Assembly: GCA_030431755.1 (NCBI GenBank)
Contig: JAUIIK010000001.1
Coordinates: 42,184 to 106,183, forward strand
Direction of reading: 5' to 3'
From: Chloroflexia bacterium
GTDB taxonomy: Bacteria; Chloroflexota; Chloroflexia; Thermomicrobiales; CFX8
DNA: 64,000 nt
Both the position numbers and the translations under genes were made by a program. Below are positions 2,923-61,259 of this stretch, in pieces. Below the pieces are notes generated by a model, which made no database searches, was not told the DNA's origin, and saw nothing but the letters and a program-made list of their open reading frames with translations. The stretch's first letter is position 1; each line of letters begins with the position of its first letter.

Positions 2923-3726
2923 CTATTCAGGGGCACAATCACGGATAGCTTCGAAGAGCAGCACCGCCGCGGCCGCTGCGACATTGAGTGATTCGATGCC
3001 TGGTGCCATCCGGATGCGGACATGCTCGGTCGCTATCGCAGACCATTCTGCGCTCGGCCCCGACGCCTCGTTGCCCAACACGAGGATGTACGGGACTTGC
3101 CAGTCGAAAGCGGTGTGCGGCGTGCCTGTCGAGCTGTCGGCAAGGATGATCCGCCGCGGAAACCCGGCGAACTCGGGCGCGGCCAGCGCCTCCGGTGATG
3201 ATACCGGGATGATGGGCAGCGCGGTGAACTGCCCGCTGGTGGCGCGGATGACCTTTGGGCTGTAGGGGTCGACAGTACCTCTTGACATAAGTACCGCATC
3301 CACGCCCGCCGCTCGGCACGATCGTAGGATCGATCCCAAGTTACCAGGGTCCTGGATGCCGTCCAGCGCAATGACCGATTTGGGCGTTTGCGGCGGCGAT
3401 GGGTCGTGCATCTCGAAGACGCCGATAGCGGGCTGGGCTGTCTCGACATCGGAGAGCTCGGCGTAGAGCACCGGGTCGACGGCAAGCACAGGGGCGTCCG
3501 CGCGATGGGCCGCGTAGACGATCTCATCCGGCACGTCAGCGAAACGGGATGCATCGATCAAAAGCCGGCTGAGGCGGCTGCCGTGATCGAGCAGGCTCGC
3601 GATGGAGCGCATGCCCTCCGCGACGAAGAGCCGTTCGCGGTAACGCGCCGCGCGGCGTTGAAAGAGAGAACGCACCAGCCGGACTGTTGGATTCGTCCGG
3701 CTGGTGATCGTATCAATGGTGTTCAT
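2923..3726 (-). CDS. TrmH/SpoU family RNA 2'-O-methyltransferase
   Basis: 267 aa with SpoU motifs (DGIQDPGNLGSILRS, LVLGNEASG, ESLNVAAAAAVLLFE). Confidence 0.85.
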   Translation of the reverse strand: MNTIDTITSRTNPTVRLVRSLFQRRAARYRERLFVAEGMRSIASLLDHGSRLSRLLIDASRFADVPDEIVYAAHRADAPVLAVDPVLYAELSDVETAQPAIGVFEMHDPSPPQTPKSVIALDGIQDPGNLGSILRSCRAAGVDAVLMSRGTVDPYSPKVIRATSGQFTALPIIPVSSPEALAAPEFAGFPRRIILADSSTGTPHTAFDWQVPYILVLGNEASGPSAEWSAIATEHVRIRMAPGIESLNVAAAAAVLLFEAIRDCAPE

Positions 3727-3747
3727 GTTGGATTGTATCGGCGTTGG

Positions 3748-4101
3748 CTAGAGCGCTGCCTTGGCAACTGAGACGTATTCGCCAAATGCATCGGGATCAC
3801 GCACCGCGAGGTCGGCGAGGATCTTGCGGTCGATCGCGACGCCCGACTTGTTCAGCCCGTTGATGAACTGGTTGTAGGGTAGGCCATGTTCGCGCGCGGC
3901 GGCATTGATGCGCTGAATCCAGAGCCGGCGCATCTGGCGCTTGCGGGCGCGCCGGTCGCGGTAGGCGGTTGCGTCGGCGCGCATGACGGCTTCATTGGCG
4001 CGCTTGAACAGACGTTTGCGTGTGCCGCGGAACCCTTCTGCGCGCTTGAGTACTTTGCGGTGTCGGCGGTGGCTCGTCACGCCGCGCTTGATGCGTACCA
4101 T
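3748..4101 (-). CDS. rplT: 50S ribosomal protein L20
   Basis: [26 protein letters not shown].. is a canonical L20 N-terminus. 117 aa. Standard infC-rpmI-rplT order. Confidence 0.97.
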
Positions 4102-4135
4102 CGGTTGCGTCCTCTCTCAGGAAGTCGTGAACGGG

Positions 4136-4339
4136 CTACTTGACGCCGTACGGGAGCAGGCGCTTGATACGCTTGCGGTCCTGCGGCGCAACCTCGTGCA
4201 TCTTGTCGAACATCCGCTTGGTGCGCTTGGCCTTGCGGCGCCGAAAGTGAGATTTCATGCCTTTGGCGCGCATGACTTTGCCCTTGCCGGTGATCTTGAA
4301 TCGCCTGGCTGCGGCCTTGTTGGTCTTCATTTTTGGCAT
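4136..4339 (-). CDS. rpmI: 50S ribosomal protein L35
   Basis: MPKMKTNKAAARRFKITGKGKVMR.., 67 aa. GAGGG Shine-Dalgarno upstream. Confidence 0.95.
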   Translation of the reverse strand: MPKMKTNKAAARRFKITGKGKVMRAKGMKSHFRRRKAKRTKRMFDKMHEVAPQDRKRIKRLLPYGVK

Positions 4340-4376
4340 GATAACCTGCCCTCATCGTGATTACTGCGGCACTCAA

Positions 4377-4400
4377 ACGGCACCGCACAAGCGGTGCCGT
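4377..4400 (-). promoter_or_regulatory. Perfect 10-bp stem hairpin (ACGGCACCGC-TTGT-GCGGTGCCGT, then TTTGAG) between infC and rpmI; possible attenuator or L20 operator mimic
   Basis: Read directly from the sequence. It lies in the 120-nt infC-rpmI spacer. The T-run is only 3 nt, so it is weak as a terminator. Confidence 0.35.
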
Positions 4401-4459
4401 CTGTTGCGACCTCTAATGATAGCAGCCGGGCGCGACGAACGCTATGGTGTCATTGCGGG

Positions 4460-5005
4460 TTAGGCTTCCTCGTCGACTTCCATGGCCACGGCATCGGGGT
4501 CGGGACTGAGCAACATCGACATGTCCCGGCCCTCCGAACGCGGCATCTGGTCCACCTGGGCAATATCGTCAAGCATGTCAATAACGCGCATGAGAAGTTC
4601 ACGCCCAAGATCGCGATGCAGGTTCTGGCGGCCGCGGAAGCGGACCGATACCTTGACCTTGTCGCCGTTGCTGAGGAACTTGCGACCGTGGCGTACCTTG
4701 GTCTCGAGATCGTGGGTGTCGATATTCGGCGTGAACCGAATCTCTTTGACCTGCGCCTGCTTCTGCTTCTTCCGCGCTTCCCGCTCTTTACGGCTTTCCT
4801 CGTAGCGGAACTTGCCGTAGTCCATGAGCCGGGCAACGGGCGGGTTGGCGTTTGGCGCAACCTCGACCAGATCAAGGCCCTTATCTCGGGCAGCCTGCAG
4901 CGCCTCCACTGTCGGGACAACGCCGAGCTGGTTGCCTTCTTCGTCGATCAGACGTACTTCTCGGATGCGGATGCGTTCGTTGACGCGCGCCGTTCTGGAG
5001 CTTAT
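4460..5005 (-). CDS. infC: Translation initiation factor IF-3, with proposed non-canonical ATA start
   Basis: The track ORF (4460-4909) lacks the conserved N-domain. The same frame stays open upstream and reads ISSRTARVNERIRIREVRLIDEEGNQLGVVPT.., a typical IF-3 N-terminus. No ATG/GTG/TTG occurs in that stretch. ATA at 5005-5003 sits 5 nt after GAGGAGG (5017-5011). Confidence 0.85.
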   Translation of the reverse strand: MSSRTARVNERIRIREVRLIDEEGNQLGVVPTVEALQAARDKGLDLVEVAPNANPPVARLMDYGKFRYEESRKEREARKKQKQAQVKEIRFTPNIDTHDLETKVRHGRKFLSNGDKVKVSVRFRGRQNLHRDLGRELLMRVIDMLDDIAQVDQMPRSEGRDMSMLLSPDPDAVAMEVDEEA

Positions 5006-5086: not shown

Positions 5087-7387
5087 TCAATACACCTCAA
5101 TCGCTGCCGCCAGAACCGGGTCGCCGGCACGTGCCAGGATCGTTGTCTGACCCTCCTGAAACGCAATCTGCCAGCCCAGCTCCTCAAGCGCCGCCACCTG
5201 CTGGGGACCGCGCGCGACAAGCTGCTCACAATCAGCGGAGGTGGAGCGTTCGATCACGCCCATGACGATGAAGCGGGGTTCGATGCCGTTCGGAGTTGGG
5301 CCCGGAGCGCCATTGAGCCAGCTCTGAGCCAACTGGTCTCGGCCACCAATCGCGAGTGTCAGGTCGGTGAATTCGCCGCGCCGCCACTGGCGTTCATGAT
5401 TGGCCCAGCCGAGCATCGTCGGGACGCCGGTGAACGCCGAGAAGCGGTTCATGGGCACGCCGCCGAGCGATTGATAGGCGCATCCCGGCGCTTCAACGAT
5501 GACGTCGCCTGCGCCGGCTTCGGACGCCAGCCATGCAACCGCCGCGGCTTCACCTGGGTTCGATTGCGCGAGATAGGCCGAGCCATCGAGGGTTCCGGAC
5601 ACCACGCCCATGTCCATCCAGTCCTCGGCCGAGAGCACAGCGTATGGCATGGAGACGAGCACGGCGACGACGATTGCCACGGAGCCGGCTCGACGAAAGA
5701 TGGCGCGGTTGCTTGCAGCGACGATGGCGAGGCTCGCCGCGCTCGCGACGCCGAGGAGTATCCACGCCTGGAAGTTCAGCTTGAAGACGGTGTTCATGCG
5801 GCTGCCAAACGAGTCCTGGATGTAGAGGAACTCCGGAACCAGCGCCAGCGCAAAACCGGCGGCAAAGAGGCCGGCGACGATCCGCGCCGGTTGGCGTGTG
5901 TCCCAGACGGAGACCGCGAGGAGGAACGCGCCAGGAATTCCGAGCAACACAAGCGCCGGTGCCCAGGCGATTGCCAACGCGAGGACCACGAGTCCAGCGG
6001 GCACTACGTATGGGATGAGGCCTGCCGTCCTGCTTGCCAGCGTCTCCGACGTGCGGAACACCCAGGCTGAAAAGACGCAGGCGCTGACGATCCACAGGCC
6101 GTGTACCGTCAGCAGCTCCGTGGCCGATGACGGCCGCCAGGTCACAATGGCGATCGTGTCGGGCAACGTACCGAGGACCGGGATGCGCGCGAACCACGCC
6201 GGCACGTCATTGGTTGCAACGCCAACCGGGGCGGTGTAGTGGATAGCAAAGGGCAGCGCGGCAACGGCAGCGCCGGCCAACGCCGCGCCGGCTCGCAGCA
6301 ACAGCTCCTGGTTCAGCGACTTGATGGCGAGCGCCAGCGCGCCAAGTACGACGACAACGCCGACTGGCGCGTCCCAGCTATTCGAGGCATAGAGTAGGCC
6401 AGCGCTCGCGCCGACGGCCGCCACGCGCTGGTAGCTGCACCAGGCACGGCCCGCGGCAAGTCCAGTAGCCAACACAACCACGGAGAGCAGCATTGGCAAC
6501 GTCGTCAAATGCGGGTGAAGGTCGCCGAGGACGAAAGAGAAGGCGGGAAACTCGTTGATCGTGTCAACCGCGTCCGGGTTGCCGTTGATGCCCGTGTCCG
6601 AAATGACGCGGCTCGCCTGCCAACCGACGCCGTCCCACCAGCCGGCCGAGACCGTAGCCGACGGGTCGCGCACGAGCCTGACGAAGGTCTCGAGATTGCC
6701 GGCGACGCCGACGAAGAACGCGGCCAACGCGCCGGCAACCCAGACAGCTGTCGAGGTGAGACGCGCTCGCTCGGCCAGCCATGCGCCGAGGCCAGCGGCG
6801 CAGGTCAATGTCGAGGCGAAGATACTGGCAAGCATGAGATTGAAAGCGACGGCAGTCTCGACCCGGCTGAGGTGGACGAGCGTTGCAACGGACTGGTAGC
6901 CAAAATAGTAGTAGTTGATTGGTGATCCGGCGAACCAGGGATCCGGCGCGGGCACGTCGCTGGAGATCACGACGGAGTTGAGCAGCGCGATCTCCATTGG
7001 TTTCTCGGTAAACGCGATGTCGGGATTCGCCACCCGGAAGACGACATATCCCAATATTCCAAACAACCACAAACCTTCAAACAGAACGATCGCACGCCAC
7101 TCAACCAGAGCGGGCGAACCGTCTCCGTGCTGGCGCACATGCGCCGCCCACGCCACAACACCAACAACCAGCGCTGCCACGCTGACTGTCGTGGTGTTGA
7201 AGGGTACGCCGAGCAACGCTGCTGGCCACCAGACGACGAATGTGGCCAGTGCCAGTCCAACGGGTCGCAGGAGCGCGTGCCGGTACGGGCCGAGCCCTGC
7301 CGCCATCCACCAGACGACGGGCGCAAGGGCGACGGTTATCAGGCTGTACGCGAGCCACCAGCGCAGGACCGCCTCAGCAACGCTCAT
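5087..7387 (-). CDS. DUF2298 / 'Chlor_Arch_YYY' domain polytopic membrane protein (GT-C-like candidate)
   Basis: 766 aa with many TM segments. Motifs: SPINYYYFGY, INEFPAFSFVLGDLHPHL, RMNTVFKLNFQAW. There is a C-terminal soluble domain. ATGA overlap with the upstream paralog (7384-7387). Confidence 0.85.
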   Translation of the reverse strand: MSVAEAVLRWWLAYSLITVALAPVVWWMAAGLGPYRHALLRPVGLALATFVVWWPAALLGVPFNTTTVSVAALVVGVVAWAAHVRQHGDGSPALVEWRAIVLFEGLWLFGILGYVVFRVANPDIAFTEKPMEIALLNSVVISSDVPAPDPWFAGSPINYYYFGYQSVATLVHLSRVETAVAFNLMLASIFASTLTCAAGLGAWLAERARLTSTAVWVAGALAAFFVGVAGNLETFVRLVRDPSATVSAGWWDGVGWQASRVISDTGINGNPDAVDTINEFPAFSFVLGDLHPHLTTLPMLLSVVVLATGLAAGRAWCSYQRVAAVGASAGLLYASNSWDAPVGVVVVLGALALAIKSLNQELLLRAGAALAGAAVAALPFAIHYTAPVGVATNDVPAWFARIPVLGTLPDTIAIVTWRPSSATELLTVHGLWIVSACVFSAWVFRTSETLASRTAGLIPYVVPAGLVVLALAIAWAPALVLLGIPGAFLLAVSVWDTRQPARIVAGLFAAGFALALVPEFLYIQDSFGSRMNTVFKLNFQAWILLGVASAASLAIVAASNRAIFRRAGSVAIVVAVLVSMPYAVLSAEDWMDMGVVSGTLDGSAYLAQSNPGEAAAVAWLASEAGAGDVIVEAPGCAYQSLGGVPMNRFSAFTGVPTMLGWANHERQWRRGEFTDLTLAIGGRDQLAQSWLNGAPGPTPNGIEPRFIVMGVIERSTSADCEQLVARGPQQVAALEELGWQIAFQEGQTTILARAGDPVLAAAIEVY

Positions 7388-10300
7388 AGATTGTGAACTG
7401 CGTCGGCTGCCGGGCGGATCATCGGGAAATCCAGTACCTCGTAGACGCGCGTTGGCCCGCTGACGAAGGCGAGCCGCAGTGACTCGCCGAGCATCGACTC
7501 GAATGCCTGCAAGCCCGCTTCGGAGGCGTAATACTCTGGAGCTTCCTGGTAGTTCCAGTAGCGTTCAACGTCGCCAACGACGACGTAGCGGACGTTATAG
7601 CGACGTAGCAGGTCGAGCTTCTCGGCAGGGACGGTCGAGTTGTAGATCGTCTTGACGTCGGCCATGCGTTTCGCGATGCCCTCTGGATAGCGTTGTTGGT
7701 ACTGGTGCCGGTCCCAGCCGATGACGGCCGGCATGCCGGTCGCGCTCGAAATGCGTGCGCCGTTGCCGCGATATGGGCCGATTCCGGCTTCGACGATGAC
7801 CGCTGTCTGGTCCTCCTGGCCGTTGAGCCAGTTGATCGCGTCCAAATCCCCGGCAAATGAGATCGTGTCGCCGGTTGCGTTCGTGATCCAGCCCTCTTCC
7901 ATCCAGGCGTAGCCATCAAGCGTCAGTGCGGAGGGGGACGTTGGCATGTCCTGACGTAGCCGTACCGGGGTCGCAAAGAAGGGATATGTCAACCCGGCCA
8001 CCAAGGCGACCACGCCGACGCCAGCGAACGCCGGACGGAGAAACCGTCGCCATTGACTTACCGTATGCGGCTCGGATCTTGCGTGTTCGGCCGGCGAAGC
8101 GACGATCCCCAATTGCTGGTTTGCGCCGCTGAGCGATGGCCAGGAGACTGAGCCCACTAGCCGCGCCAGCAGCACGCCGGAGCCGATTGCCAGAAGCATC
8201 CAGGCCTGGAGGTAGAACTTGAAGACCGTGTTCATCCGCTGCCATGAACCGTTCTGCAGGTCATCGACGACGTAGACGAACTCGGTCGAGGCTATCGTCA
8301 AACTCCCGACCGCGATGAACGCCCAGGGGAGAAAATAGCGCGGTTCCCGCCAGCGGCTTACGGCAAACATCGCGCTGTCGGCAGCAAGGCCAACCGCAAC
8401 GGCGGCGGCGGGCGCGGTCGGACTCAGGAATCCGGCTGCGACGACGAGCACGCATATCGCTACGACGGGCAGTGGATGCCGACCAAGCGGCCGCGTCGCC
8501 ATCGCCGCGCCGCCGATAGTCGCAATGACGAGCACAAGCGCAGCAAATACTTCACCGAGTGGCGCGCGTGCGAGTCCCGGCACGCCAATAATCGCACCCG
8601 GCGCGACTGCCGCGAGTCCCAATAGCAGCAAGGGCAACGCCTGCCGCGCACTGTCTGGTCTCGCCGTCGCAGTCAATCCACGGTACAGCATGACGGCTAC
8701 GACGACCATGAAGAAGACGCCCCAGACGGTCAGGAACTGGCGCAGGTTTGACCCAGCGTCGGCCCTTCCAACGCCTTCGACGACGCTATAGAAGTTCGTG
8801 TGAAATGGTAGGAACGCCGTGTAGCCGGCCGCGAGCACCACGCCTCCAGACAGCGCCAGCGTGAACGCAGCGCGAGTGGAGCGCAGCAGGCCGGCGTAGA
8901 AGAGTGTCGCAACCGTTACGGCGATCATCAGCGGCAGGTCCCAGGCGTTGATGACGAAGACACTACCGACCGCGAGCGCGCCAACGACGGCCAGCCCTAT
9001 CGCTCGATCAATCATCAGCGCATCAACTTGTAGCCCCTTGACATACGCGGTCGTTGCGACGAGGAGTGCCAGCGTTAACACGACAATTGGCATACCCATC
9101 AGATGCGGGTGCAGGTCCGCCCAGAGGAACGAGAAGTAGGGGAACTCGTTGATCGTGAAGTCGATGACGCGCGTGCTGCCCCAGAAGTCGAAGAAGTCCG
9201 GCACGTCGCGCCGCAGCTCAAGCACCTGTCGCAAGGCATCGAGGTTGCCCACGAAGAGCACGGCGACGAGCGCGAGTCCCGGCGCGAGGATCGCTCGGCC
9301 AATCCGCCCGGCCTCCCATCTGACACCGGAGAGCATCATCGCGACCAGCGCGACCTGCATCGCTAGCAACGCCGCGAGCGTCGGCACGGCAAGCTGGAAT
9401 GCGTGGGTCACGCCAACCCCGGGCACGCGGCCAATGGTGCTCACGAGATGCCAGCCGTAGTAGTAGTAGTTGATCGCGCCATCGCTGTACCAGGGATCGT
9501 AGGGCGGCATCTCGCCGGACGCCGCCACTGCGCGGAGATAGGCCAGCTCGAACGGCTTTTCGCCGCCGAGAAAGGTCTGCCAAAAATCTGGATACAGCGC
9601 GCGCGCCAACAGGAACGGAGCGAATACCGCCAGCATGAGCCCGGCAGCCAGACCGTAGGCTCGCAGTGATGGGAGGGCTGGCGCGCGCTTCGCATTGTCC
9701 CGCCACTGGAACCAACCCCAACAGGCGATGGCAAGCGCTGCGAGACACATCACAACGGTGGAGGTCGTTGCGCGCCAGAAGCCGAGGCTGGCCCCGATCC
9801 AGATGAGCCAACCGACGATGACGATGCCGACGAGTCTGGTCGCCAGCGCGCCGCGATCCGGCGTCCGGCTGAAGACGAGGGCACTCAACGGCAGAGCCGC
9901 CAGGCCAAAGAGCTCCAGCGCGATCAGCCAGACCAGGAGCGCGACCAACCCGCTGTCCACCGCCAACGCATTCCAGCCGATGTCGGCGACCGCCTCGCGT
10001 TCTCCAACTGGCTCATCGAGTAGGAGCCACTGCTGGGATGGATAGCGTTGCGGCTCCCACGGTTGATTGATGCCCCAGAGCAGCCGGTCGCGAAATTCCG
10101 CCTCGCTCAAGCGCTCAACACGCTCGAAGATCATGACCCGTGGGTGGTCGTATACCGTGAAGCTCTCATCGGCTCCGGAGTCGTCATAACGCACGCCGAA
10201 CAATTCTGGGCGCAGCTCTGCCTGGTACACAAGCTGGTAGCCGAGCTGCCCGTTGACCAAGCGCCGGTAGTACTCGTTCTGGACGCCGTAGCGCCAGGGC

Positions 10301-11847
10301 AGATTGTCAACGGAGTAGATCAAGCGATCGCTGGACATAACGACGTAGTCAACCGGCTCCAGTGCTTCGTAGAGGTAGCTGACTTTCTCCTCGGGTGGCA
10401 GGTCACCGTAGATGTCAAGCGACTGGATGTTGTAGCTACTCGTCTCGCCATCAATGCGTAACGGAAGAGCATCGTCCCATGACTCGGCGCTCAACGTCGC
10501 GCCCGGCTCGACGTTGTCGTAGATCCAGTGCGACGCGGCGATGCGCGGGTGCTCGCCGGAGTAGATCGAGCTGAACCCGAAGGCCCAGAGCGCCGTGACG
10601 CCGAGCACCACGACCGCCGCCGCCAGCGCCGTGCGTCGCGCCTCCGGCCGTTGCATCCAACTCCACAGCATCCCGCCGGCGAAGAGCGCAAAGACCGGCA
10701 ATAGTGGCAGCGCGTAGCGCAAGAAACGCGCCTCGGTGATGAGCAATGTTGGGATGTAGGCGACGATCCAGACAAGCGGTATCGCTAGCGCGACATCGCG
10801 CGATTTCGCCACCCGGAAGACCACGAAGGCAACGCCAGCAAGGCTTGCCAACAGGAGGGCCGGGCCAGCGGTATAGGCAAAGAGGTTCTGCAGCTCGTAG
10901 ACACCGGGTGTCAAGCCGACGAATTGACGGGTAAACGGGACGTCCCAGATCCCGCGCACGATACGCGCTTGCGTCCGGATATCTTGGATAAACGGTTCAC
11001 GGCGAATTAGCGCGTAGGGCTCGAAGAGCGTGAAGACCGCAAGCGCGGTCAGCGCGCCAGCGGCGGCTTGGCCGACGACGTGTTGCCGTCTGTCGGAGCG
11101 CCAAAACACCACACCGAAAGCCAGCAGCAACGGCCCCAACAGCGCCGGCACGCTCGCCTTAGTTGCGAAGGCGCAACCGACGACGATGCCGAGCAGCGCC
11201 GCGCGCTGTAGTGTCGGACGGTCCAAGTAGCGAATTGCAAGGAACAGTGCCGTCGTCACGAACGCTGTCAGCCACGGATCGACGGTGAAGTAGTGGCTCA
11301 GCTGGATTGGCAGCACTGCCAGCGCGTAGAGCGCCGCGCCGATCAATCCTGCGGCGTCGCCAAAGAGCCGCCGGCCGAGGAGAAAGACGACGACGAGGGT
11401 CACGAGATCAAGTAGAGCGGTGAGCGTGCGGCCGACGTGATACAGATCCCGGTATTCGCCGTATTGAGTATCGAAGACCAGGTCGATGGCCCAGCTCACC
11501 GCGCCCTGAACGTAGATCGGCAGCGTGCCGTAGGCAAATGACTGCGGGTTGCCGTTAGCATCGTCGCGGCGCGGGTTGATCGGGCTGTTGGCAGGATCGA
11601 AGACATCGCGCAGGCGGTCTGCCGGCAGCGTGACCCGGTCGCTGGAGACGCTGGCGATGAAGCGCTCATCGGGGTGCAGGTAATGGCCGTCGTCCCAATT
11701 CTGACCATAGAGGCGTAATCCCGCAGCGACGAACATGATCAACAGCAGCGCTAGCCAGGTCTTACTTAGGGTTGATAGACGCTGGGACATGGAGCTGGTT
11801 CCGACTCCCGGATAAGTACTAATCTCCGATGGCTCGTGTCGCTCCAT
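7384..11847 (-). CDS. Fusion of an N-terminal GT39/PMT_2(ArnT)-like glycosyltransferase module with a DUF2298 / YYY-domain module
   Basis: 1487 aa. The N-terminal ~600 aa have the GT-C loop-1 motif (YLHPDERF) and ArnT/PMT-like TM topology. The C-terminal ~850 aa are paralogous to the neighbour (AINYYYYGWH, INEFPYFSFLWADLHPHL, RMNTVFKFYLQAW). Confidence 0.85.
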   Translation of the reverse strand: MERHEPSEISTYPGVGTSSMSQRLSTLSKTWLALLLIMFVAAGLRLYGQNWDDGHYLHPDERFIASVSSDRVTLPADRLRDVFDPANSPINPRRDDANGNPQSFAYGTLPIYVQGAVSWAIDLVFDTQYGEYRDLYHVGRTLTALLDLVTLVVVFLLGRRLFGDAAGLIGAALYALAVLPIQLSHYFTVDPWLTAFVTTALFLAIRYLDRPTLQRAALLGIVVGCAFATKASVPALLGPLLLAFGVVFWRSDRRQHVVGQAAAGALTALAVFTLFEPYALIRREPFIQDIRTQARIVRGIWDVPFTRQFVGLTPGVYELQNLFAYTAGPALLLASLAGVAFVVFRVAKSRDVALAIPLVWIVAYIPTLLITEARFLRYALPLLPVFALFAGGMLWSWMQRPEARRTALAAAVVVLGVTALWAFGFSSIYSGEHPRIAASHWIYDNVEPGATLSAESWDDALPLRIDGETSSYNIQSLDIYGDLPPEEKVSYLYEALEPVDYVVMSSDRLIYSVDNLPWRYGVQNEYYRRLVNGQLGYQLVYQAELRPELFGVRYDDSGADESFTVYDHPRVMIFERVERLSEAEFRDRLLWGINQPWEPQRYPSQQWLLLDEPVGEREAVADIGWNALAVDSGLVALLVWLIALELFGLAALPLSALVFSRTPDRGALATRLVGIVIVGWLIWIGASLGFWRATTSTVVMCLAALAIACWGWFQWRDNAKRAPALPSLRAYGLAAGLMLAVFAPFLLARALYPDFWQTFLGGEKPFELAYLRAVAASGEMPPYDPWYSDGAINYYYYGWHLVSTIGRVPGVGVTHAFQLAVPTLAALLAMQVALVAMMLSGVRWEAGRIGRAILAPGLALVAVLFVGNLDALRQVLELRRDVPDFFDFWGSTRVIDFTINEFPYFSFLWADLHPHLMGMPIVVLTLALLVATTAYVKGLQVDALMIDRAIGLAVVGALAVGSVFVINAWDLPLMIAVTVATLFYAGLLRSTRAAFTLALSGGVVLAAGYTAFLPFHTNFYSVVEGVGRADAGSNLRQFLTVWGVFFMVVVAVMLYRGLTATARPDSARQALPLLLLGLAAVAPGAIIGVPGLARAPLGEVFAALVLVIATIGGAAMATRPLGRHPLPVVAICVLVVAAGFLSPTAPAAAVAVGLAADSAMFAVSRWREPRYFLPWAFIAVGSLTIASTEFVYVVDDLQNGSWQRMNTVFKFYLQAWMLLAIGSGVLLARLVGSVSWPSLSGANQQLGIVASPAEHARSEPHTVSQWRRFLRPAFAGVGVVALVAGLTYPFFATPVRLRQDMPTSPSALTLDGYAWMEEGWITNATGDTISFAGDLDAINWLNGQEDQTAVIVEAGIGPYRGNGARISSATGMPAVIGWDRHQYQQRYPEGIAKRMADVKTIYNSTVPAEKLDLLRRYNVRYVVVGDVERYWNYQEAPEYYASEAGLQAFESMLGESLRLAFVSGPTRVYEVLDFPMIRPAADAVHNL

Positions 11848-11926
11848 CGAACCTATACTCTACGTCAAGACAATGCAGTTTCCGCATATACGCCACGCCG
11901 TTCACGGTTAGCGGGGGTCCACGCGA

Positions 11927-12439
11927 ATGATACGCACATTGAAGGTCATTGTTGGCGGCGAAGGAGCAGTCGGAAAGACATCGCTCATCCGGCAATACGC
12001 GAAAGCCAAATTCAGCGAGGCACGCAACATCACGCTTGGGATTGACGTCACGACCCAGGAGTTCAACATCGACGGTCAAGACGTCAAGCTCGCCATCTGG
12101 GACATCGAGGGTCAGGCTGGCAACCGCCCGAACTTCTTCCTCGGCGCGCAGGCCGCGCTCCTCGTTTACGACACCACGATTGACGGCTCGCTCCAGGCGC
12201 TGACCGAGTGGCACGCGCGCTGCAAGCGCTATTGCCCCGACGCGCCGATCATCGTCGTCGGCAACAAGATCGACCTCGGCCTCTGGTTTCCCTCTGAGTG
12301 GCCGCGCACGCTGGCATGGTACTCTCGCGCGAAGCACGGCTTCCTGTCGGCGAAGACCGGCGAGAACGTCGGGCAGGGCTTCGAGCTGCTGGCCCGGTCG
12401 GCAATGAACCACGCGGGAGTGCTAGAGACGAGCGCCTGA
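11927..12439 (+). CDS. Ras-superfamily small GTPase (Rab/Rup-like)
   Basis: 170 aa with all five G motifs: G1 GGEGAVGKTS, G2 ITLGIDV, G3 WDIEGQ, G4 GNKIDL, G5 LSAKTG. Confidence 0.85.
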   Translation: MIRTLKVIVGGEGAVGKTSLIRQYAKAKFSEARNITLGIDVTTQEFNIDGQDVKLAIWDIEGQAGNRPNFFLGAQAALLVYDTTIDGSLQALTEWHARCKRYCPDAPIIVVGNKIDLGLWFPSEWPRTLAWYSRAKHGFLSAKTGENVGQGFELLARSAMNHAGVLETSA

Positions 12440-13368
12440 TCCACCGCATCGTATTTCTTGGATCGCCGGAGTTTGCCGTCCCGAGCTTGAACGAGCTGGC
12501 GGCCCATCCTGAGCTGGATGTCGTGCTGGTCGTGACCCAACCGGACCGGCCGGCTGGCCGTGGCCGCAAACTCACGCCACCGCCGGTCAAGCAGGCCGCG
12601 GAAGCGCTCGGCATACCGGTCTATCAGCCTGAATCCCTACGCACCGTTGATGCCTCCGCGCCGCTGCGGGAAGCCGCGCCGGATCTTCTTGTGGTTGTCG
12701 CATACGGCGAGATCCTGCGAAAGCATGTTCTCGACCTTGCGCCCGCCGGGGCGCTGAACGTCCATCCCTCGCTCCTGCCGCGCTATCGCGGTTCAGCGCC
12801 GGTGCGCGCCGCGATCCTCAACGGCGACGCTGAAACCGGTGTCACGATCATGCGTCTGGTGCGCAAGCTCGACGCTGGCCCCATCGTCCGGCAGGAACGC
12901 GTGCCATTGGCGGGAAACGAGGACGCGGAGAGCTTGTCCGACGAGCTCGCGAAGCTCGCGGCGGAGTTCCTGCCCGAGACATGCGTCAACTGGATCAACG
13001 GCTCGCTCGAGGCCGTAGAGCAGGACGACGCGCTTGCGACGATGACGCGCGAGTGGTCGCGGGATGACGCCCGCATCGACTGGACCGCCGATGCCGTCGA
13101 TACCGAGCGGCTGGTGCGAGCGTCACAACCGTGGCCGGTTGCGTGGACCATGCTGGACGGCGAGCCGTTTCGTATTCATCGCTCCGCCCTAGCGACTGGG
13201 TCGGGGCTTGCTGCCGGCACGGTTCGGCGGCAAGGGAAGAAGATCATCGTTGGCTGTGGCAGCGGCGTGCTTGAGCTCGTGAGCGTGCAACCCGCCGGCA
13301 AACGGGCGATGCCTGCGCCAGGCTGGTGGAACGGCGTCCGGCAGGATGAGGTCCAGTTCGACGCCTGA
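12436..13368 (+). CDS. fmt: Methionyl-tRNA formyltransferase (start uncertain)
   Basis: ..IHRIVFLGSPEFAVPSL.. and ..VVTQPDRPAGRGRKLTPPPVK.. are canonical Fmt. The conserved N-terminus begins at about 12436. The only candidate codon there is CTG (12436-12438), overlapping the GTPase TGA. The alternatives, GTG 12298 and ATG 16 nt further in, would add a ~40-aa non-conserved extension inside the GTPase gene. Confidence 0.8.
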   Translation: MIHRIVFLGSPEFAVPSLNELAAHPELDVVLVVTQPDRPAGRGRKLTPPPVKQAAEALGIPVYQPESLRTVDASAPLREAAPDLLVVVAYGEILRKHVLDLAPAGALNVHPSLLPRYRGSAPVRAAILNGDAETGVTIMRLVRKLDAGPIVRQERVPLAGNEDAESLSDELAKLAAEFLPETCVNWINGSLEAVEQDDALATMTREWSRDDARIDWTADAVDTERLVRASQPWPVAWTMLDGEPFRIHRSALATGSGLAAGTVRRQGKKIIVGCGSGVLELVSVQPAGKRAMPAPGWWNGVRQDEVQFDA

Positions 13369-13380
13369 GTGCGAAGCGGC

Positions 13381-13911
13381 CTACAACACAACATAATCCG
13401 GCATCTTTAGATTACGCCAGATAGAGTAGGGCGACTCGTCGCGCAAACGCGCTATGTACAGCGCCATTACCGTCCCGTGACTGACGATTCCCAACCTGCC
13501 TGAGACACACTGCGACATTTTTCGCGCCTCGTCGACAGCGCCGGCGAACCGCGTCAATGCCTGCGCCGCCGTCTCAAGTCCGAACACGAGTTCGTCGGGA
13601 GTCTCGAAGAACCGTTTCAGCTGCGCGTGCCAGGCATCTGCGCCCAACCACGGGAGCGCCTCCCGACCGTGTTCGCCCAGGTTTGGCACGGTCGACCAGG
13701 GAACATCGAGCGCGGCAGCGATTGCCTCCGCCGTGCCGGCAGCCTTTGGTTCCTCACTCGACACAAGCTGCTCGATATCGAACGCTCGCAGTTCTTCTCC
13801 GAGCCACATCGCCGCGGCTCGCCCATCTTGCGCGAGCGGCCACCGGGCAGCCGGGATCGACGGATCAACGTTCGGTTGCGCGTGCCGGATCAGAACAAGA
13901 TCGGCGCTCAT
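13381..13911 (-). CDS. Histidine phosphatase (phosphoglycerate mutase-like) family protein
   Basis: N-terminal LVLIRHAQP (RHG-type motif). 176 aa. ATGA overlap with the upstream gene. Confidence 0.7.
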   Translation of the reverse strand: MSADLVLIRHAQPNVDPSIPAARWPLAQDGRAAAMWLGEELRAFDIEQLVSSEEPKAAGTAEAIAAALDVPWSTVPNLGEHGREALPWLGADAWHAQLKRFFETPDELVFGLETAAQALTRFAGAVDEARKMSQCVSGRLGIVSHGTVMALYIARLRDESPYSIWRNLKMPDYVVL

Positions 13912-41168: not shown

Positions 41169-43244
41169 CTAGTCGAAGACCACGATGGCGTCGAGGTCGA
41201 CGCGCTTCGACGAAGAGTTCTGATTCTTCGCGCCGAGCACCTTGATCTCCAGCGTGTGCGTGAAGTTGGGATCCAGGCCATCGGCGGTGAAGGCCACACG
41301 CCGGGACATCGCGCCGCCATTGACATAAAGGTCAACGGTCTGCATCTTTACGCCGTCGAGCCAGACTTCCGCTTTGCCGCGGTTGTTGCCTCGCACGGAG
41401 ATCCAGCTCACGCTGGTTCCGGTGAAGGTGAAGGTCACATTTGATCCCTTGGCGCTGGCGTGCTTGAGCGCGCCACCATATGCGCCGCTCATGGATGCCG
41501 TCGTCCAGCTACCGCTGTAGGGGATCGAGCTCGAGCTTTCCTCGTAGAGTCTGATCGAGAATGTCTCGCCGGTAGACCAATCGCTCACCGCGCCGAGATT
41601 GTCGGTTGCCCGGACACGCAGCTGGTAGTCATGCCAGGGCGGCAGGTTCAAGGCGGTCGATTGATTCTCGGCGCCGCTGGCGATCGTCTTGACCGTCACG
41701 AACGCGCCGCCGTCGGTGCTCAGCTGGAGTTCGTGAAGGCTGACGCCATCGCTGTCGCTGCCCGACCAGGCAACCGGCACCGGCACAGCGCTCGGCGTCA
41801 GCCGGAAGACCGGCGGAGCATAGGTTGGCGCGCTAACCGTGGGCGGCTCGTTGATCGTCGCGCCCGGTCCGTCGCGCTCGTCGACGCCGATCTCCATCGC
41901 CGCGGCGCCGGGGGCGGCGTCGCCGTCGAGGTCCTCGGTGTAACCCTCGCCGGCAGGCTCGTTCGTGCCCCGGTCGATGACCGGGCTATTGCCGCTGACG
42001 TGGAAGTCTTTGCCGGCCGGATTGACGAAGTGCGGGTCGGCGATGATCGAGGTTGGACTGATCTCCCAGTTCTGAATGAAGTTGTTCGGAAGTGGAAGCC
42101 CGCCGGGATGCCAGTAGAGATTGTGTGTCTCATTGATCGTGTTGCCGGAGTTGACGTAGATCGCCTTGTCCGACGCGACGATGATGTTGTTCTTCATCTC
42201 CAACACCTGGTTGGAGCAGGACATGCAGACGACGCCCTGGCCATCGTTGCCGATGTTGTAGACGACGTTGTTGTAGAGCGATGTGCGCCAGACCGGGCCG
42301 TGCGGTTCGCCCGCGCCCCGCGTTACGACGAAGCGGCTACGCTCCTCGTTGTTCGAGTGGACGTTGTAGGCAAACGTATTGTCCGCCGACGTGATCGACG
42401 AGCTGCTACCCATCTCAACGAAGATGCGATCATACGAAACATTGTGATGCACGTTCGAGTTCGTCGCATTGAAGAGCTCGATCGAGATGCTGGATGTGTA
42501 CTGGCCAATGCCGCCATCCGGGGCTTTCGTGCAGAGGCTGTTGTTGTTGGCGAATGTGTTCCAGGCGACCTCGTTGGCATTGCCATGGAGATTCACCCCC
42601 AGGCCGCCGAGCGGGTCCCCGGGCTCGTTGCGCCAGAGGCCGACATTATCGCGAATCTCATTGCGAAAGATGACATTGTGGTGCGAGTTGTCGGACATGC
42701 CGAAACCCATGCTGTGATTCGAGGTCTTCGAGTGGCGAACCGTGTTGTGGTGTGCCGCGCCATCGAACTGGAAGCCAATCTTCCAGCCCACCGGCTGATT
42801 CAGGCAGCTGCCATCCAGCTCGTAGGCCGTCATGTCATGGCGCGTCTGCAGGTACTGGACGATGATGTAGGAGCCGGAGATCTTGACGTTGGCGTTCGGC
42901 GCGTTCTTGATCATCGGGCGGTCGCCCGAGCCATAGGCGCTGATCATGATCGGGTTGGCCGACGTTCCATGCCAGCTCGCCTTGAGCGGACCGTCCCAGC
43001 TGCAACCGCGTTTGAGCAGCAGCTGGTCGCCGGCTGAGAGGGTAGCGCTGTTGACGGGGTCGAGCGACTTCCAGGCGTTGCTCGATGAGGTTCCGCTGGC
43101 GCCGTCATTGCCGGCCACACAGTCAACATAATACTTGGTGCCGCCTGCGGCCAGAGCCTGTTGGGTGAGTCCTGGCGTGATGGCGGCGAAGCCGGATACG
43201 ACTACAGCGCACGCCAGGAGAAGACAAGTGAACTTGCGGGGCAC
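41169..43244 (-). CDS. Secreted right-handed beta-helix protein with Ig-like and C-terminal carbohydrate-binding-like domains (glycan lyase/hydrolase or surface-protein candidate)
   Basis: GTG 43244 is preceded by GGGAG and gives the signal peptide VPRKFTCLLLACAVVVSGFAAITPGLTQQALA. GTKYYVD..GNDGASGTS..WKSL entry motif, then N/H-rich beta-helix repeats. C-terminal beta-sandwich (YSGSWTTASMSGAYGGALKHA..VDLDAIVVFD). Confidence 0.75.
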   Translation of the reverse strand: MPRKFTCLLLACAVVVSGFAAITPGLTQQALAAGGTKYYVDCVAGNDGASGTSSSNAWKSLDPVNSATLSAGDQLLLKRGCSWDGPLKASWHGTSANPIMISAYGSGDRPMIKNAPNANVKISGSYIIVQYLQTRHDMTAYELDGSCLNQPVGWKIGFQFDGAAHHNTVRHSKTSNHSMGFGMSDNSHHNVIFRNEIRDNVGLWRNEPGDPLGGLGVNLHGNANEVAWNTFANNNSLCTKAPDGGIGQYTSSISIELFNATNSNVHHNVSYDRIFVEMGSSSSITSADNTFAYNVHSNNEERSRFVVTRGAGEPHGPVWRTSLYNNVVYNIGNDGQGVVCMSCSNQVLEMKNNIIVASDKAIYVNSGNTINETHNLYWHPGGLPLPNNFIQNWEISPTSIIADPHFVNPAGKDFHVSGNSPVIDRGTNEPAGEGYTEDLDGDAAPGAAAMEIGVDERDGPGATINEPPTVSAPTYAPPVFRLTPSAVPVPVAWSGSDSDGVSLHELQLSTDGGAFVTVKTIASGAENQSTALNLPPWHDYQLRVRATDNLGAVSDWSTGETFSIRLYEESSSSIPYSGSWTTASMSGAYGGALKHASAKGSNVTFTFTGTSVSWISVRGNNRGKAEVWLDGVKMQTVDLYVNGGAMSRRVAFTADGLDPNFTHTLEIKVLGAKNQNSSSKRVDLDAIVVFD

Positions 43245-48223: not shown

Positions 48224-49169
48224 TCATAGAGCTTGTCCATCATCGAAGGCGTAGCCACAGTGCTGAAACCAACCGCGCGCATCTTGGACGGTGATCCGAT
48301 CAAGCCCTTGCGCGATCGCTTCCCAGAGCCCCTCGACCGCGCGTTGGTTGGCTCGTCGAAGATGGGCTTTGAGTTTGGAAAAGAGCTGCTCGATGGGGTT
48401 GAAGTCCGGCGAGTAGGGCGGTAAAGGGAGCACCCGACATTCGGCGGCCTCGATGAGCACTACGGCATCGCTACTCTTATGCACACTGAGGTTATCCCAG
48501 ATGACAATCTGCCCCGCACGCAATTGCGGGACGAGGAATTGGGCGATGAACTGATCGAAGACGGGCCGGTCCATGGCCCATTCAATGACCACCGCCGTCT
48601 CGACACCACCAAGGGTCATGGCCGCCATCACTGTCGTGTTCTTGCCCCAGTTGCGCGGCACCTGGCCGATGCAGCGCGCTCCGCGTGGAGCCCGGCCGTA
48701 GCGTGGCGTCAACGTGATGTTGGCGCCACTCTCATCGACAAAGATCAACTGCTCTGCGGCAACACCCTCGATCTCAGCCCACCAGGCAGTGCGTGCTTCT
48801 GGATCCTGTTCGCTGGCGATCAGCCGCTTTTTTTCGCGTCAATTCCAGCCGCTGCAGCGTGCGGCACATGGTCGCGGCACTGACCCTGACCCCGCTGACT
48901 CCCATCCACTGATGGCAGTAGTCGCTCAGGGTGGCATCGGCGCTGGCACGCACCAGGGCTGTCAGCGCCGCATGCTGGTCGGCTGGGATCAGCGGCGGGC
49001 GTCCCGGGCTGGTGCGCGCCACAACCGAGCCTTCCGCACGCCACTGCTGGCGATAGCGCCGCACAGTGCGGGCCGAGACGGCGAACCGCCGCGCGACCTC
49101 TGCCACCGTCTGCCCCAACTCCAGAGCGGCGATGATCCGTTCACGGAGATCCGGACTGTAGGCACGCAT
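48224..49169 (-). CDS. IS630 family transposase; the HTH part (49169-48774) and DDE part (to 48224) lie in different frames that meet at an A7 run
   Basis: N-terminal part MRAYSPDLRERIIAALELGQTVAEVARRF.. . After CGAAAAAAAG the +1 frame continues ..KKRLIASEQDPEARTAWWAEIEGVAAEQLIFVDESGANITLTPRYGRAPRG..DNLSVHK..LPPYSPDFNPIE (DDE_3 signature). Confidence 0.8.
48828..48834 (-). other. A7 homopolymer (T7 on the plus strand) at the transposase frame junction; candidate +1 recoding or transcriptional-slippage site, or an inactivating indel
   Basis: Read directly: CGA AAA AAA GCG in the orfA frame versus GAA AAA AAG CGG in the orfB frame. Confidence 0.6.
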
Positions 49170-49315
49170 CACCCCTCCTGCCTTTCACCCTGCGTGCCAC
49201 AGTGTCACCGAGGAACAGCCTATTCGCAATAGGGTCTAGTGTTCCGGGGCACGCAGTTTTTCTGCAGTTGGTCCTCGAACTGAGCTAACACAATGTGCGA
49301 TATTGCGTCACCTGT

Positions 49316-60992: not shown

Positions 60993-61259
60993 ATGCGTAA
61001 GAGCTGCTACAGCGAGGAGCAGATCATCGATATCCTGCGGGAGCATGAAGCGGGCGCCAGCGTCACCGACCTGAGTCGCCGGCACGGGGTTAGTCAGTTG
61101 ACGATCTACCGCTGGAAACAGAAGTATGACGGGTTGGAACTCTCCGAGCTCAAGCGGCTGAAAGCGCTTGAGGCGGAGAATGCCCGGCTGAAGAAGCTCG
61201 TGGCAGACCAGGCCTTTGACAACCAGATGCTCAAGGAGTTGCTCGGAAAAAAGTGGTGA
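60993..61259 (+). CDS. IS3 family transposase OrfA (HTH)
   Basis: MRKSCYSEEQIIDILREHEAGASVTDLSRRHGVSQLTIYRWKQKY..LKALEAENARLKKLVADQ is a canonical IS3-family OrfA with a leucine zipper. Confidence 0.85.
   Translation: MRKSCYSEEQIIDILREHEAGASVTDLSRRHGVSQLTIYRWKQKYDGLELSELKRLKALEAENARLKKLVADQAFDNQMLKELLGKKW

Follow-up and report, generated by a model that had tools for sequence, protein, structure and literature searches.

A Rup-type, Rab-like small GTPase gene forms a predicted translationally coupled pair with fmt in Thermomicrobiales

The 64,000-nucleotide (nt) stretch analyzed here (hereafter the window; positions 42,184 to 106,183 of contig JAUIIK010000001.1 in assembly GCA_030431755.1, from a Chloroflexia bacterium of the Thermomicrobiales) carries at 11927–12439 (+) a gene, rup, for a Rup-type, Rab-like small GTPase of the Ras superfamily. 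It encodes 170 amino acids (aa) from ATG to TGA and is identified by its open reading frame (ORF), domain matches, and a structural model. On the same strand follows fmt (12436–13368, +), encoding methionyl-tRNA formyltransferase—310 aa when read from a CTG start—with matches to TIGR00460 at 292 bits (cut-off 201.5) and to Pfam Formyl_trans_N and Formyl_trans_C. As an initial annotation made from the sequence alone had described, rup diverges from a giant gene for a GT-C-type membrane protein (1487 aa, PMT_2 plus DUF2298 by Pfam; 7384–11847, −), which in turn shares a 4-nt overlap with the gene for a second DUF2298 membrane protein (5087–7387, −; Pfam).

The rup product is matched over residues 6–159 by Pfam Ras (PF00071; E = 1.1e-29, 103.6 bits against a cut-off of 21.6), and also by the Roc domain (3e-24) and the NCBIfam model small_GTP (TIGR00231; 1.6e-16). 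The five G motifs that the initial annotation had quoted for the 170-aa protein are all intact. Read from the sequence, they comprise the G1/P-loop GGEGAVGKTS (residues 10–19; 11954–11983, +), in which G11, G16, and K17 are invariant; switch I/G2, R33-N-I-T36-LGIDV (12023–12049, +), where Arg33 occupies the Ras Tyr32 position three residues before the switch I Thr; G3/switch II, WDIEGQ (residues 58–63; 12098–12115, +), with Asp59, Gly62, and the catalytic-type Gln63, read also from the family alignment; G4, GNKIDL (residues 112–117; 12260–12277, +), whose N113-K-I-D116 forms the NKxD guanine-specificity motif; and G5, SAK (residues 141–143; 12347–12355, +). Residues invariant across the family include W58, D59, I60, G62, R67, W95, and W125. 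Given an alignment of 75 sequences, AlphaFold2 produced a confident model (predicted local distance difference test, pLDDT, 92.4; predicted template-modeling score, pTM, 0.89), a single ~170-residue G domain with the six-stranded sheet and five helices expected of the Ras superfamily. With Gln63 and Thr36 intact, we infer that Rup binds and hydrolyzes GTP; the product is predicted to be a soluble, single-domain GTP/GDP switch without a lipid anchor. Guanine-plus-cytosine (GC) content by codon position (0.58/0.45/0.80), deduced via an exact antisense shadow ORF, is typical of this 63% GC window and thus gives no hint of recent transfer. That antisense ORF (197 aa; 11819–12412, −) is exactly codon-opposed to rup, a shadow of a gene rich in GC at third codon positions, and a naive gene picker can call it instead of rup.

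Sequence and fold comparisons both pointed to the Rab side of the superfamily. The best Protein Data Bank (PDB) sequence matches were Rab7, Rab23, Rab21, Rab5, Rab18, and Ran (~1e-21 to 1e-17), and Foldseek of the model against the PDB returned Rab7, Rab43, Rab23, Rab1b, Rab5a, and a Thorarchaeota Rab at the top, with template-modeling (TM) scores of 0.79–0.85 to Rab and also Rho structures. In a distance matrix in which Myxococcus xanthus MglA was the one reference sequence checked against a database entry (identical to PDB 6hjh), Rab7 (1.34) and Rab5 (1.39) lay nearest to Rup, and Arf1 (2.52) and MglA (2.77) were the most remote. Compared by eye with Rab7, Rup has partial likeness at the RabF regions (LGIDV vs. 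IGVDF; KLAIWD vs. KLQIWD). The C terminus (...NHAGVLETSA) has no Cys in its last 60 residues and no prenylation motif (CC, CxC, or CAAX); the N terminus, MIRTLKV, runs straight into β1, leaving no amphipathic or myristoylated helix of the Arf kind, and Pfam Arf scores 28.5 bits vs. 103.6 for Ras. The core is thus Rab-like, but without these C-terminal and N-terminal features the protein is neither a Rab nor an Arf by membership.

The category that fits is Rup, which takes in prokaryotic Ras-superfamily members outside MglA that are closest to Rab/Ras/Rho/Ran, as this protein is. A Sphaerobacter thermophilus protein is 75% identical to it, and the cluster of that protein, P0042, holds ACZ38611/D1C2Z4 (DSM 20745, 167 aa). 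The 167-aa protein Sthe_1175 of S. thermophilus DSM 20745 was catalogued as "Rup Unc" with the neighborhood "Rup>" (Wuichet and Sogaard-Andersen 2014, PMC4316618); organism, length, and accession ACZ38611 together indicate that cluster P0042 corresponds to Sthe_1175, of which the window gene is the ortholog. In that survey, Rup Group 1 has neighbors encoding a coiled-coil protein, an OmpA-domain protein, and either a diguanylate cyclase or a histidine kinase, and Group 2 is a Crenarchaeota-restricted, multi-copy clade without a conserved neighborhood (PMC4316618). Here the neighbors are GT-C/DUF2298 genes and fmt, the host is bacterial (Thermomicrobiales), and rup is single-copy within the window, where we found no MglA and no second Rup copy. 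Later work grouped Rup1 with Asgard RasL and eukaryotic Rab/Ras/Rho/Ran. Close homologs in S. thermophilus, Nitrolancea, and Thermomicrobiaceae carry the NCBI names "Rab family GTPase" or "small GTP-binding protein": The window gene is a member of a known, already annotated Rup kind and not a new gene discovery.

MglA membership was rejected. The G3 motif DIEGQ keeps the Asp where MglA has TVPGQ, BLASTP against M. xanthus MglA gave 18.5 bits (E = 0.064), MglA lies at the largest reference distance, and no mglB is adjacent. That Rup is nonetheless an MglA-type polarity/motility GTPase could draw on the shared bacterial Ras-superfamily setting and on the fact that Thermomicrobia do carry MglA; the Sphaerobacter ortholog is, however, classed as Rup in a genome whose MglA is another gene, Sthe_1565, and after the tests run this identity keeps virtually no probability. 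The initial description of a stand-alone Rab/Ras-like DxxGQ GTPase distinct from MglA therefore holds, with best matches to Rab7, Rab23, Rab5, and Rab43 and the E value of 0.064 to MglA; the placement that it had asked for, against MglA and the Arf/Rab families, was carried out by neighbor joining (NJ) and distances and gave Rab7/Rab5 as nearest, MglA as most distant, and no clustering with MglA.

By tblastn over all loci, fmt lies directly 3′ of rup wherever a Thermomicrobiales locus extends beyond rup. In each of 39 distinct Thermomicrobiales junctions, and in the window, the distance from the rup stop to the predicted fmt start is between −20 and +15 nt. The surroundings vary around this pair. 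In Sphaerobacter and Nitrolancea, rplT-rpmI-infC and then two oppositely oriented DUF2298 genes precede rup and fmt; in loci L006/L007 (62% identity) the upstream side is wholly different (nuo genes, FAA hydrolase) and rup-fmt-nfi is kept, with called genes overlapping by 20 nt. Downstream of the pair stand nfi, a spermine synthase gene, or, in the window, a convergent His_Phos_1 gene. Because the fmt junction is tight although both flanks are rearranged, the arrangement reads as an operon signature rather than drifting synteny. The rup-fmt neighborhood is mostly translation-related in most Thermomicrobiales, L006/L007 excepted.

The pair also has the geometry of translational coupling, for which co-directional genes that overlap by 4 or 1 nt or stand very close together are characteristic (PMC10666635): The window genes are co-directional and overlap by 4 nt. 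Overlaps of −4 nt give tight termination–reinitiation coupling, which collapses with ~20-nt spacers (PMC10666635), and fmt translation is predicted to depend on rup translation. Co-translation with fmt, which the initial annotation had offered as the more unusual option, is strongly backed by the comparative junction data. A Rup–Fmt fusion produced by frameshift or readthrough was considered and rejected: The relative frames differ by lineage, with both genes in one frame in Sphaerobacter and a one-base offset between them in the window clade.

The window junction is CTGA (12436–12439, +): In the junction comparison, the predicted fmt start CTG (12436–12438) overlaps the rup stop TGA (12437–12439). 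This CTG stands four codons before the conserved Fmt N terminus RIVFLGSPEFAVP, with TIGR00460 position 2 aligning to codon 12445, and is preceded by a Shine–Dalgarno-like GAGA (12425–12428, +) 7 nt to its 5′ side; GAGG/GGAGG occurs at equal spacing in five of the six CTGA relatives. The CTGA overlap is found in seven loci (the window, L008, L009, L012, L090, L091, and L113) and a TTGA overlap in six more (L010, L011, L092, L095, L096, and L107), and at the homologous codon Sphaerobacter has ATG, 6 nt beyond the rup stop, and Nitrolancea has GTG. In the window itself no stop interrupts the fmt frame from 12298 onward, and GTG 12298 and ATG 12316 are canonical start codons, so that fmt could begin at either and overlap rup by 124–142 nt. 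The extension this would add is Arg-rich, of low complexity, and outside the Pfam and TIGRFAM fmt models. Five CTGA relatives (L008, L009, L012, L090, and L113) have an in-frame stop 15–57 nt upstream (at −15 or −57) and no ATG, GTG, or TTG, leaving CTG as the only NTG before the motif, and every other lineage begins fmt 2–13 codons, mostly 4, before [IV]xF[LF]G. Because the relatives' frame is closed by stops just upstream, the window ATG 12316 and GTG 12298 are probably fortuitous, and an upstream start is very unlikely. A start at CTG 12436 inside the CTGA overlap is accordingly the predicted one. The initial annotation had called CTGA the only plausible start region: The overlap stands, recurring in six relatives; "only" does not, given the open, if unconserved, GTG 12298 and ATG 12316.

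A promoter for the pair emerged from cross-species alignment. The −10 element TATACT (11854–11859, +), 67 nt 5′ of the rup ATG, is invariant in 12 of 12 aligned Thermomicrobiales loci and lies 17–18 nt 3′ of the −35 element. The latter is a degenerate TGGCTC in the window (11830–11835, +), where relatives in the 12-locus alignment have TTGACC, TTGATC, or TTGTCC; upstream of rup it is generally TTGAC[CT], with TTGTCC or TTGTTC in the window's close relatives. A consensus promoter/terminator scan of 11600–13700 returned nothing, including no internal fmt promoter, and also missed this conserved promoter, because the window −35 is weak. A conserved sigma-70-type promoter is thus predicted to drive rup-fmt. 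Around it, a near-invariant noncoding block of ~80 nt (11810–11890, no strand assigned) covers the promoter together with the first part of the 5′ untranslated region (UTR), with runs of identical columns in the window, L008, L009, and L012; the GT-C proteins of the same four species are only 64–69% identical. This conservation exceeds the needs of a bare promoter and comes without an Rfam match; the block may hold an operator or a 5′-UTR element. The divergent GT-C gene probably starts at Met20 (ATG 11790) and not at 11847, because homolog alignments begin at ~20–45 and its first 19 codons would otherwise overlap the rup promoter block.

A protein search with Rup gave 3277 homologs, the close ones from Thermomicrobiales; a lookup of the exact window protein in public assemblies found no record. 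In a scan of one genome per GTDB species, sequences with at least 58% identity came only from Thermomicrobiales-type metagenome-assembled genomes (MAGs), those at 45–48% from other Chloroflexia (L033–L036), those at 40–43% from Anaerolineales, and those at 31–39% mostly from Asgard and Thermoplasmatota archaea. Only 13 of the 50%-identity clusters, among 1.84 billion representatives, matched Rup at E < 1e-30, consistent with a narrow, lineage-specific family. In a simple distance NJ tree (200 bootstraps), 88% support went to a clade of the Thermomicrobiales sequences, L030 and L032 among them; L033–L036 joined this clade at 95.5%, and all Chloroflexota together received 63%. Within the locus, rup is the most constrained gene: Rup has a median identity to the window of 75%, compared with 56% for Fmt and 43% for GT-C, and L012 compared with the window gives 95% for Rup, 78%/47% for Fmt (two high-scoring segment pairs), and 69% for GT-C. 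Further relatives include the N-terminally extended P0125 and the 46%-identity P0132, both on contigs too short to show their gene context. The L033–L036 proteins (e.g., L036 6001–6516) carry G3 as WDIAGE, with the catalytic Gln replaced by Glu, and Tyr in place of Arg33; they may be hydrolysis-impaired paralogs. Two of these loci have a HIT-family gene upstream, and two others an ~865-aa Peptidase_C39-like/PA14 gene downstream.

No Roadblock/LC7 gene was found among the 59 window genes (56 by Pfam, two via Pfam records of the L008 orthologs, and one shadow ORF) or in the precomputed Pfam tables of orthologous loci. The initial annotation had likewise seen no MglB-like neighbor, and the window genes and orthologous loci bear this out; its suggestion that the missing partner is unusual fails, the absence being expected for Rup, since MglB pairing is a property of MglA and not of Rup (PMC4316618). 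Its label "orphan" applies only to the neighborhood, in the window and in orthologous loci, since Thermomicrobia carry MglA and MglB elsewhere: In S. thermophilus, a Group 1 MglA (Sthe_1565) distinct from the Rup comes with two MglB genes (PMC4316618).

The Anaerolineales Rup-like GTPases (40–43% identity) have a conserved ~245-aa hypothetical gene directly upstream in 13 loci (L037–L048 and L051; e.g., L047 5257–5988). This partner family has 891 members, no Pfam match, and only noise (E ≥ 0.18) in a PDB profile search. Its model comprises an N-terminal coiled coil and an α-β-β-α-β-β-β-α domain (pLDDT 62.6 overall, 75–86 in the core), and the Foldseek matches of the C-terminal domain were all of Roadblock/longin type: dynein LC7, the longin domain of Sec22b, LAMTOR/Ragulator, and Roadblock proteins from Streptomyces and Asgard archaea (E = 3e-4 to 4e-3). 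The family is a candidate MglB-type GTPase-activating protein (GAP) or guanine-nucleotide exchange factor unseen by Pfam. A hidden Markov model (HMM) of the partner had no match in the window or in any Thermomicrobiales locus, and tblastn with partner proteins gave only noise. Sequence and model comparisons thus suggest that the wider Chloroflexota clade includes a lineage whose GTPase has a companion resembling MglB, whereas in the Thermomicrobiales lineage coupling to fmt takes its place.

Three residues ahead of the switch I Thr, all 116 of the 116 family members carry Arg, as do Anaerolineales-type relatives; other Ras-like domains mostly have Tyr at this position, equivalent to Ras Tyr32. 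G-alpha subunits carry their catalytic cis-arginine at the same R-x-x-T spacing (Arg178 and Thr181 in G-alpha-i1). By analogy, Arg33 may act as a cis arginine finger that allows GAP-independent hydrolysis.

Taken together, these observations suggest the following account. In Thermomicrobiales, rup would be the first cistron of a two-gene rup-fmt operon transcribed from the conserved sigma-70-type promoter with its −10 element at 11854–11859. Translation of fmt would begin at the weak CTG 12436 within the CTGA overlap, and Fmt synthesis would depend largely on ribosomes that have just finished rup, by termination–reinitiation or tight coupling; the amounts of Rup and Fmt would therefore be tied. 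Rup itself would have a role connected to Fmt or translation initiation, as a partner or a nucleotide-state regulator, a proposal drawn only from the conserved coupling. We regard this account as a whole—a Rup switch orthologous to Sthe_1175, encoded in a coupled rup-fmt operon with a CTG start, and with a role tied to Fmt or initiation—as probable. Taken separately, any functional link of Rup to Fmt or translation initiation is plausible, though it stays on the doubtful side. A stronger form, in which Rup is a dedicated Fmt partner or regulator that reads guanine-nucleotide state to tune formylation and initiation, Arg33 makes hydrolysis self-activating and GAP-independent, and Fmt is strictly stoichiometric and IF3-sensitive (IF3, initiation factor 3), strikes us as distinctly unlikely.

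Several points weigh against the operon account and its functional extension. The fmt linkage is confined to one order: L032 (58% identity), L033–L036, and the Anaerolineales group are unlinked to fmt. In L032, rup is flanked by genes for an HpcH-family aldolase and a GlcD-like oxidase, and the fmt-linked sequences do not form a clade excluding L032 in the NJ tree, so the linkage can be lost while the GTPase stays. The Anaerolineales cousins pair with a Roadblock/longin-like protein, not with fmt. At the junction, the window fmt frame is open upstream, with GTG 12298 and ATG 12316, and CTG initiation is rare in bacteria; at the promoter, the window −35 is degenerate and the element is known from alignment alone; the cis-finger idea for Arg33 is built on spacing alone. 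No Rup protein had been experimentally characterized as of the 2014 survey (PMC4316618). A physical or regulatory Rup–Fmt link is hypothetical, and the sole, indirect argument for a physical relationship is that −4-nt overlap pairs are enriched for subunits of complexes (PMC10666635).

The adjacency could also be inherited synteny or promoter sharing, with Rup acting in an unrelated signaling or polarity pathway whose partners, for example a Roadblock/longin-type regulator, are encoded elsewhere. The restriction of the link to Thermomicrobiales, the unlinked L032, L033–L036, and Anaerolineales genes, the fold partner upstream of the Anaerolineales cousins, and the MglB genes that Thermomicrobia carry elsewhere (PMC4316618) all accord with this. 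However, all 39 of the 39 distinct junctions are at most 15 nt apart or overlapping despite rearranged flanks, the 4-nt overlaps and weak starts would make Fmt output mechanistically dependent on rup, and the Anaerolineales-partner HMM comes up empty in the window and the Thermomicrobiales loci. We hold such an unconnected role to be a real possibility, short of the expected outcome. The initial annotation had also raised a functional link to the divergent envelope GT-C genes. In this reading, Rup would regulate the divergent pair of GT-C/DUF2298 envelope glycosyltransferases, either by way of the control region shared with them or by acting on the membrane proteins. The pair does stand upstream in 23 of the 26 fmt-linked genome loci, and the ~80-nt intergenic block is near-invariant in four species. 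Yet this tie is weaker than that to fmt: The pair is absent in the L006/L007, L030, and L031 lineages, with L006/L007 and L031 keeping rup-fmt, a pair retained in every locus that continues past rup; GT-C diverges much more quickly than Rup (43% vs. 75% identity); and Rup has no membrane-targeting feature, neither a C-terminal Cys nor an N-terminal amphipathic helix. Regulation of the GT-C pair therefore seems unlikely.

What is new here is the order-wide coupled rup-fmt operon predicted above, itself modestly novel, together with its conserved promoter, the conserved CTGA/TTGA junctions, and the invariant Arg. The coupling, the promoter, the non-AUG junctions, and Arg33 are absent from the 2014 survey (PMC4316618), and a search of the literature turned up no paper that ties a small GTPase to fmt in Chloroflexi. 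Among bacterial proteins, Rup proteins stand closest to eukaryotic Rab, Ras, Rho, and Ran, and extreme conservation combined with order-wide fmt coupling offers an unusually clean genetic clue to their function. If Rup does regulate Fmt, it would be the first Rup with an assigned function and the first Ras-family GTPase integrated into the initiation of translation in bacteria; if synteny is all there is to the linkage, rup is an ordinary, already annotated small GTPase. The conserved CTGA/TTGA junctions offer a natural setting in which to study reinitiation at codons other than AUG, and cultivable members (Sphaerobacter thermophilus and Nitrolancea hollandica) permit direct experiments.

Elsewhere in the window, a translation-related run (2923–4909, −) comprising infC, rpmI, rplT, and a SpoU/TrmH-family RNA methyltransferase gene lies beyond the two membrane-protein genes. 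In the IF3 gene infC (4460–5005, −), none of ATG, GTG, and TTG stands where the N terminus is expected; a strong Shine–Dalgarno motif, GGAGGA, is followed 4 nt later by ATA (5005–5003) and then SSRTARVNERIRIREV. E. coli infC starts with AUU, and the window ATA looks like the classic noncanonical infC start used for IF3 autoregulation. An IF3-discriminated infC start and an fmt CTG start 7 kb apart make a curious pairing. A large envelope-polysaccharide cluster at ~22100–47300 encodes a Wzm/Wzt-type ABC exporter, several GT2 and GT4 glycosyltransferases, two sulfotransferases, a fused ATP sulfurylase/adenosine phosphosulfate (APS) kinase, and PGA_cap, which suggests synthesis of a sulfated exopolysaccharide. 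Transposase remnants comprise an IS630-type helix-turn-helix (HTH) and DDE_3 split over two ORFs (48224–49172) and an IS3-type HTH_Tnp_1 ORF (60993–61259). Rfam at gathering thresholds and ARAGORN found no RNA element in the whole window, and PADLOC gave no defense-system match for rup, fmt, and the two genes downstream. Among the relatives, fmt and both DUF2298 genes are frameshift-split in L004/L028 (Nitrolancea chromosome OY970217.1, a long-read MAG) and intact in L005, which has the same Rup protein; the frameshifts are probably assembly indel errors rather than pseudogenes.

Set beside known systems, Rup resembles eukaryotic Rab proteins (Rab7, Rab23, Rab5, and Rab1) at ~30% identity and a TM score of ~0.8, with T-L-G-I-D vs. 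T-I-G-V-D-F at switch I and K-L-x-I-W-D before G3. It differs in having neither a C-terminal Cys prenylation motif nor a hypervariable tail, in Arg33 for Tyr, and in DIEGQAGNRP vs. DTAGQERF at switch II, and it is bacterial, with no membrane-traffic context. Asgard Ras-/Rab-like GTPases are the next-closest homologs after those of Chloroflexota (31–39% identity), and a Thorarchaeota Rab (PDB 7ezb) is among the top folds; their gene contexts differ, however, and the Chloroflexota sequences form their own clade (63% support). The MglA/MglB module is alike as a bacterial Ras-superfamily switch, and the Roadblock/longin-like gene upstream of the Anaerolineales cousins is reminiscent of MglB; Rup differs by its G3 Asp, by great sequence distance, and by the lack of a Roadblock gene in the window.

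The usual bacterial arrangement is a def-fmt operon. The window locus is alike in placing fmt distally in a tight two-gene operon, but the upstream cistron encodes a Ras-like GTPase, not peptide deformylase, and Pfam scans of the window genes found no def in the 64-kb window. NTGA stop/start pairs (Huber et al. 2019, 2023; PMC6728339, PMC10666635) share the 4-nt overlap, a Shine–Dalgarno-like motif in the upstream gene, and conservation of the overlap; rup-fmt differs in its CTG/TTG starts, where ATG/GTG is usual, and its coupling is deduced from sequence. Among catalogued Rup proteins, the window protein fits neither Group 1 nor Group 2, and the 2014 survey gives the Sthe_1175 neighborhood only as "Rup>", without fmt (PMC4316618). 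With the unclassified Rup Sthe_1175 itself it shares a single domain of ~167–170 aa, a DxxGQ G3, the absence of an MglB neighbor, and the same flanking genes.

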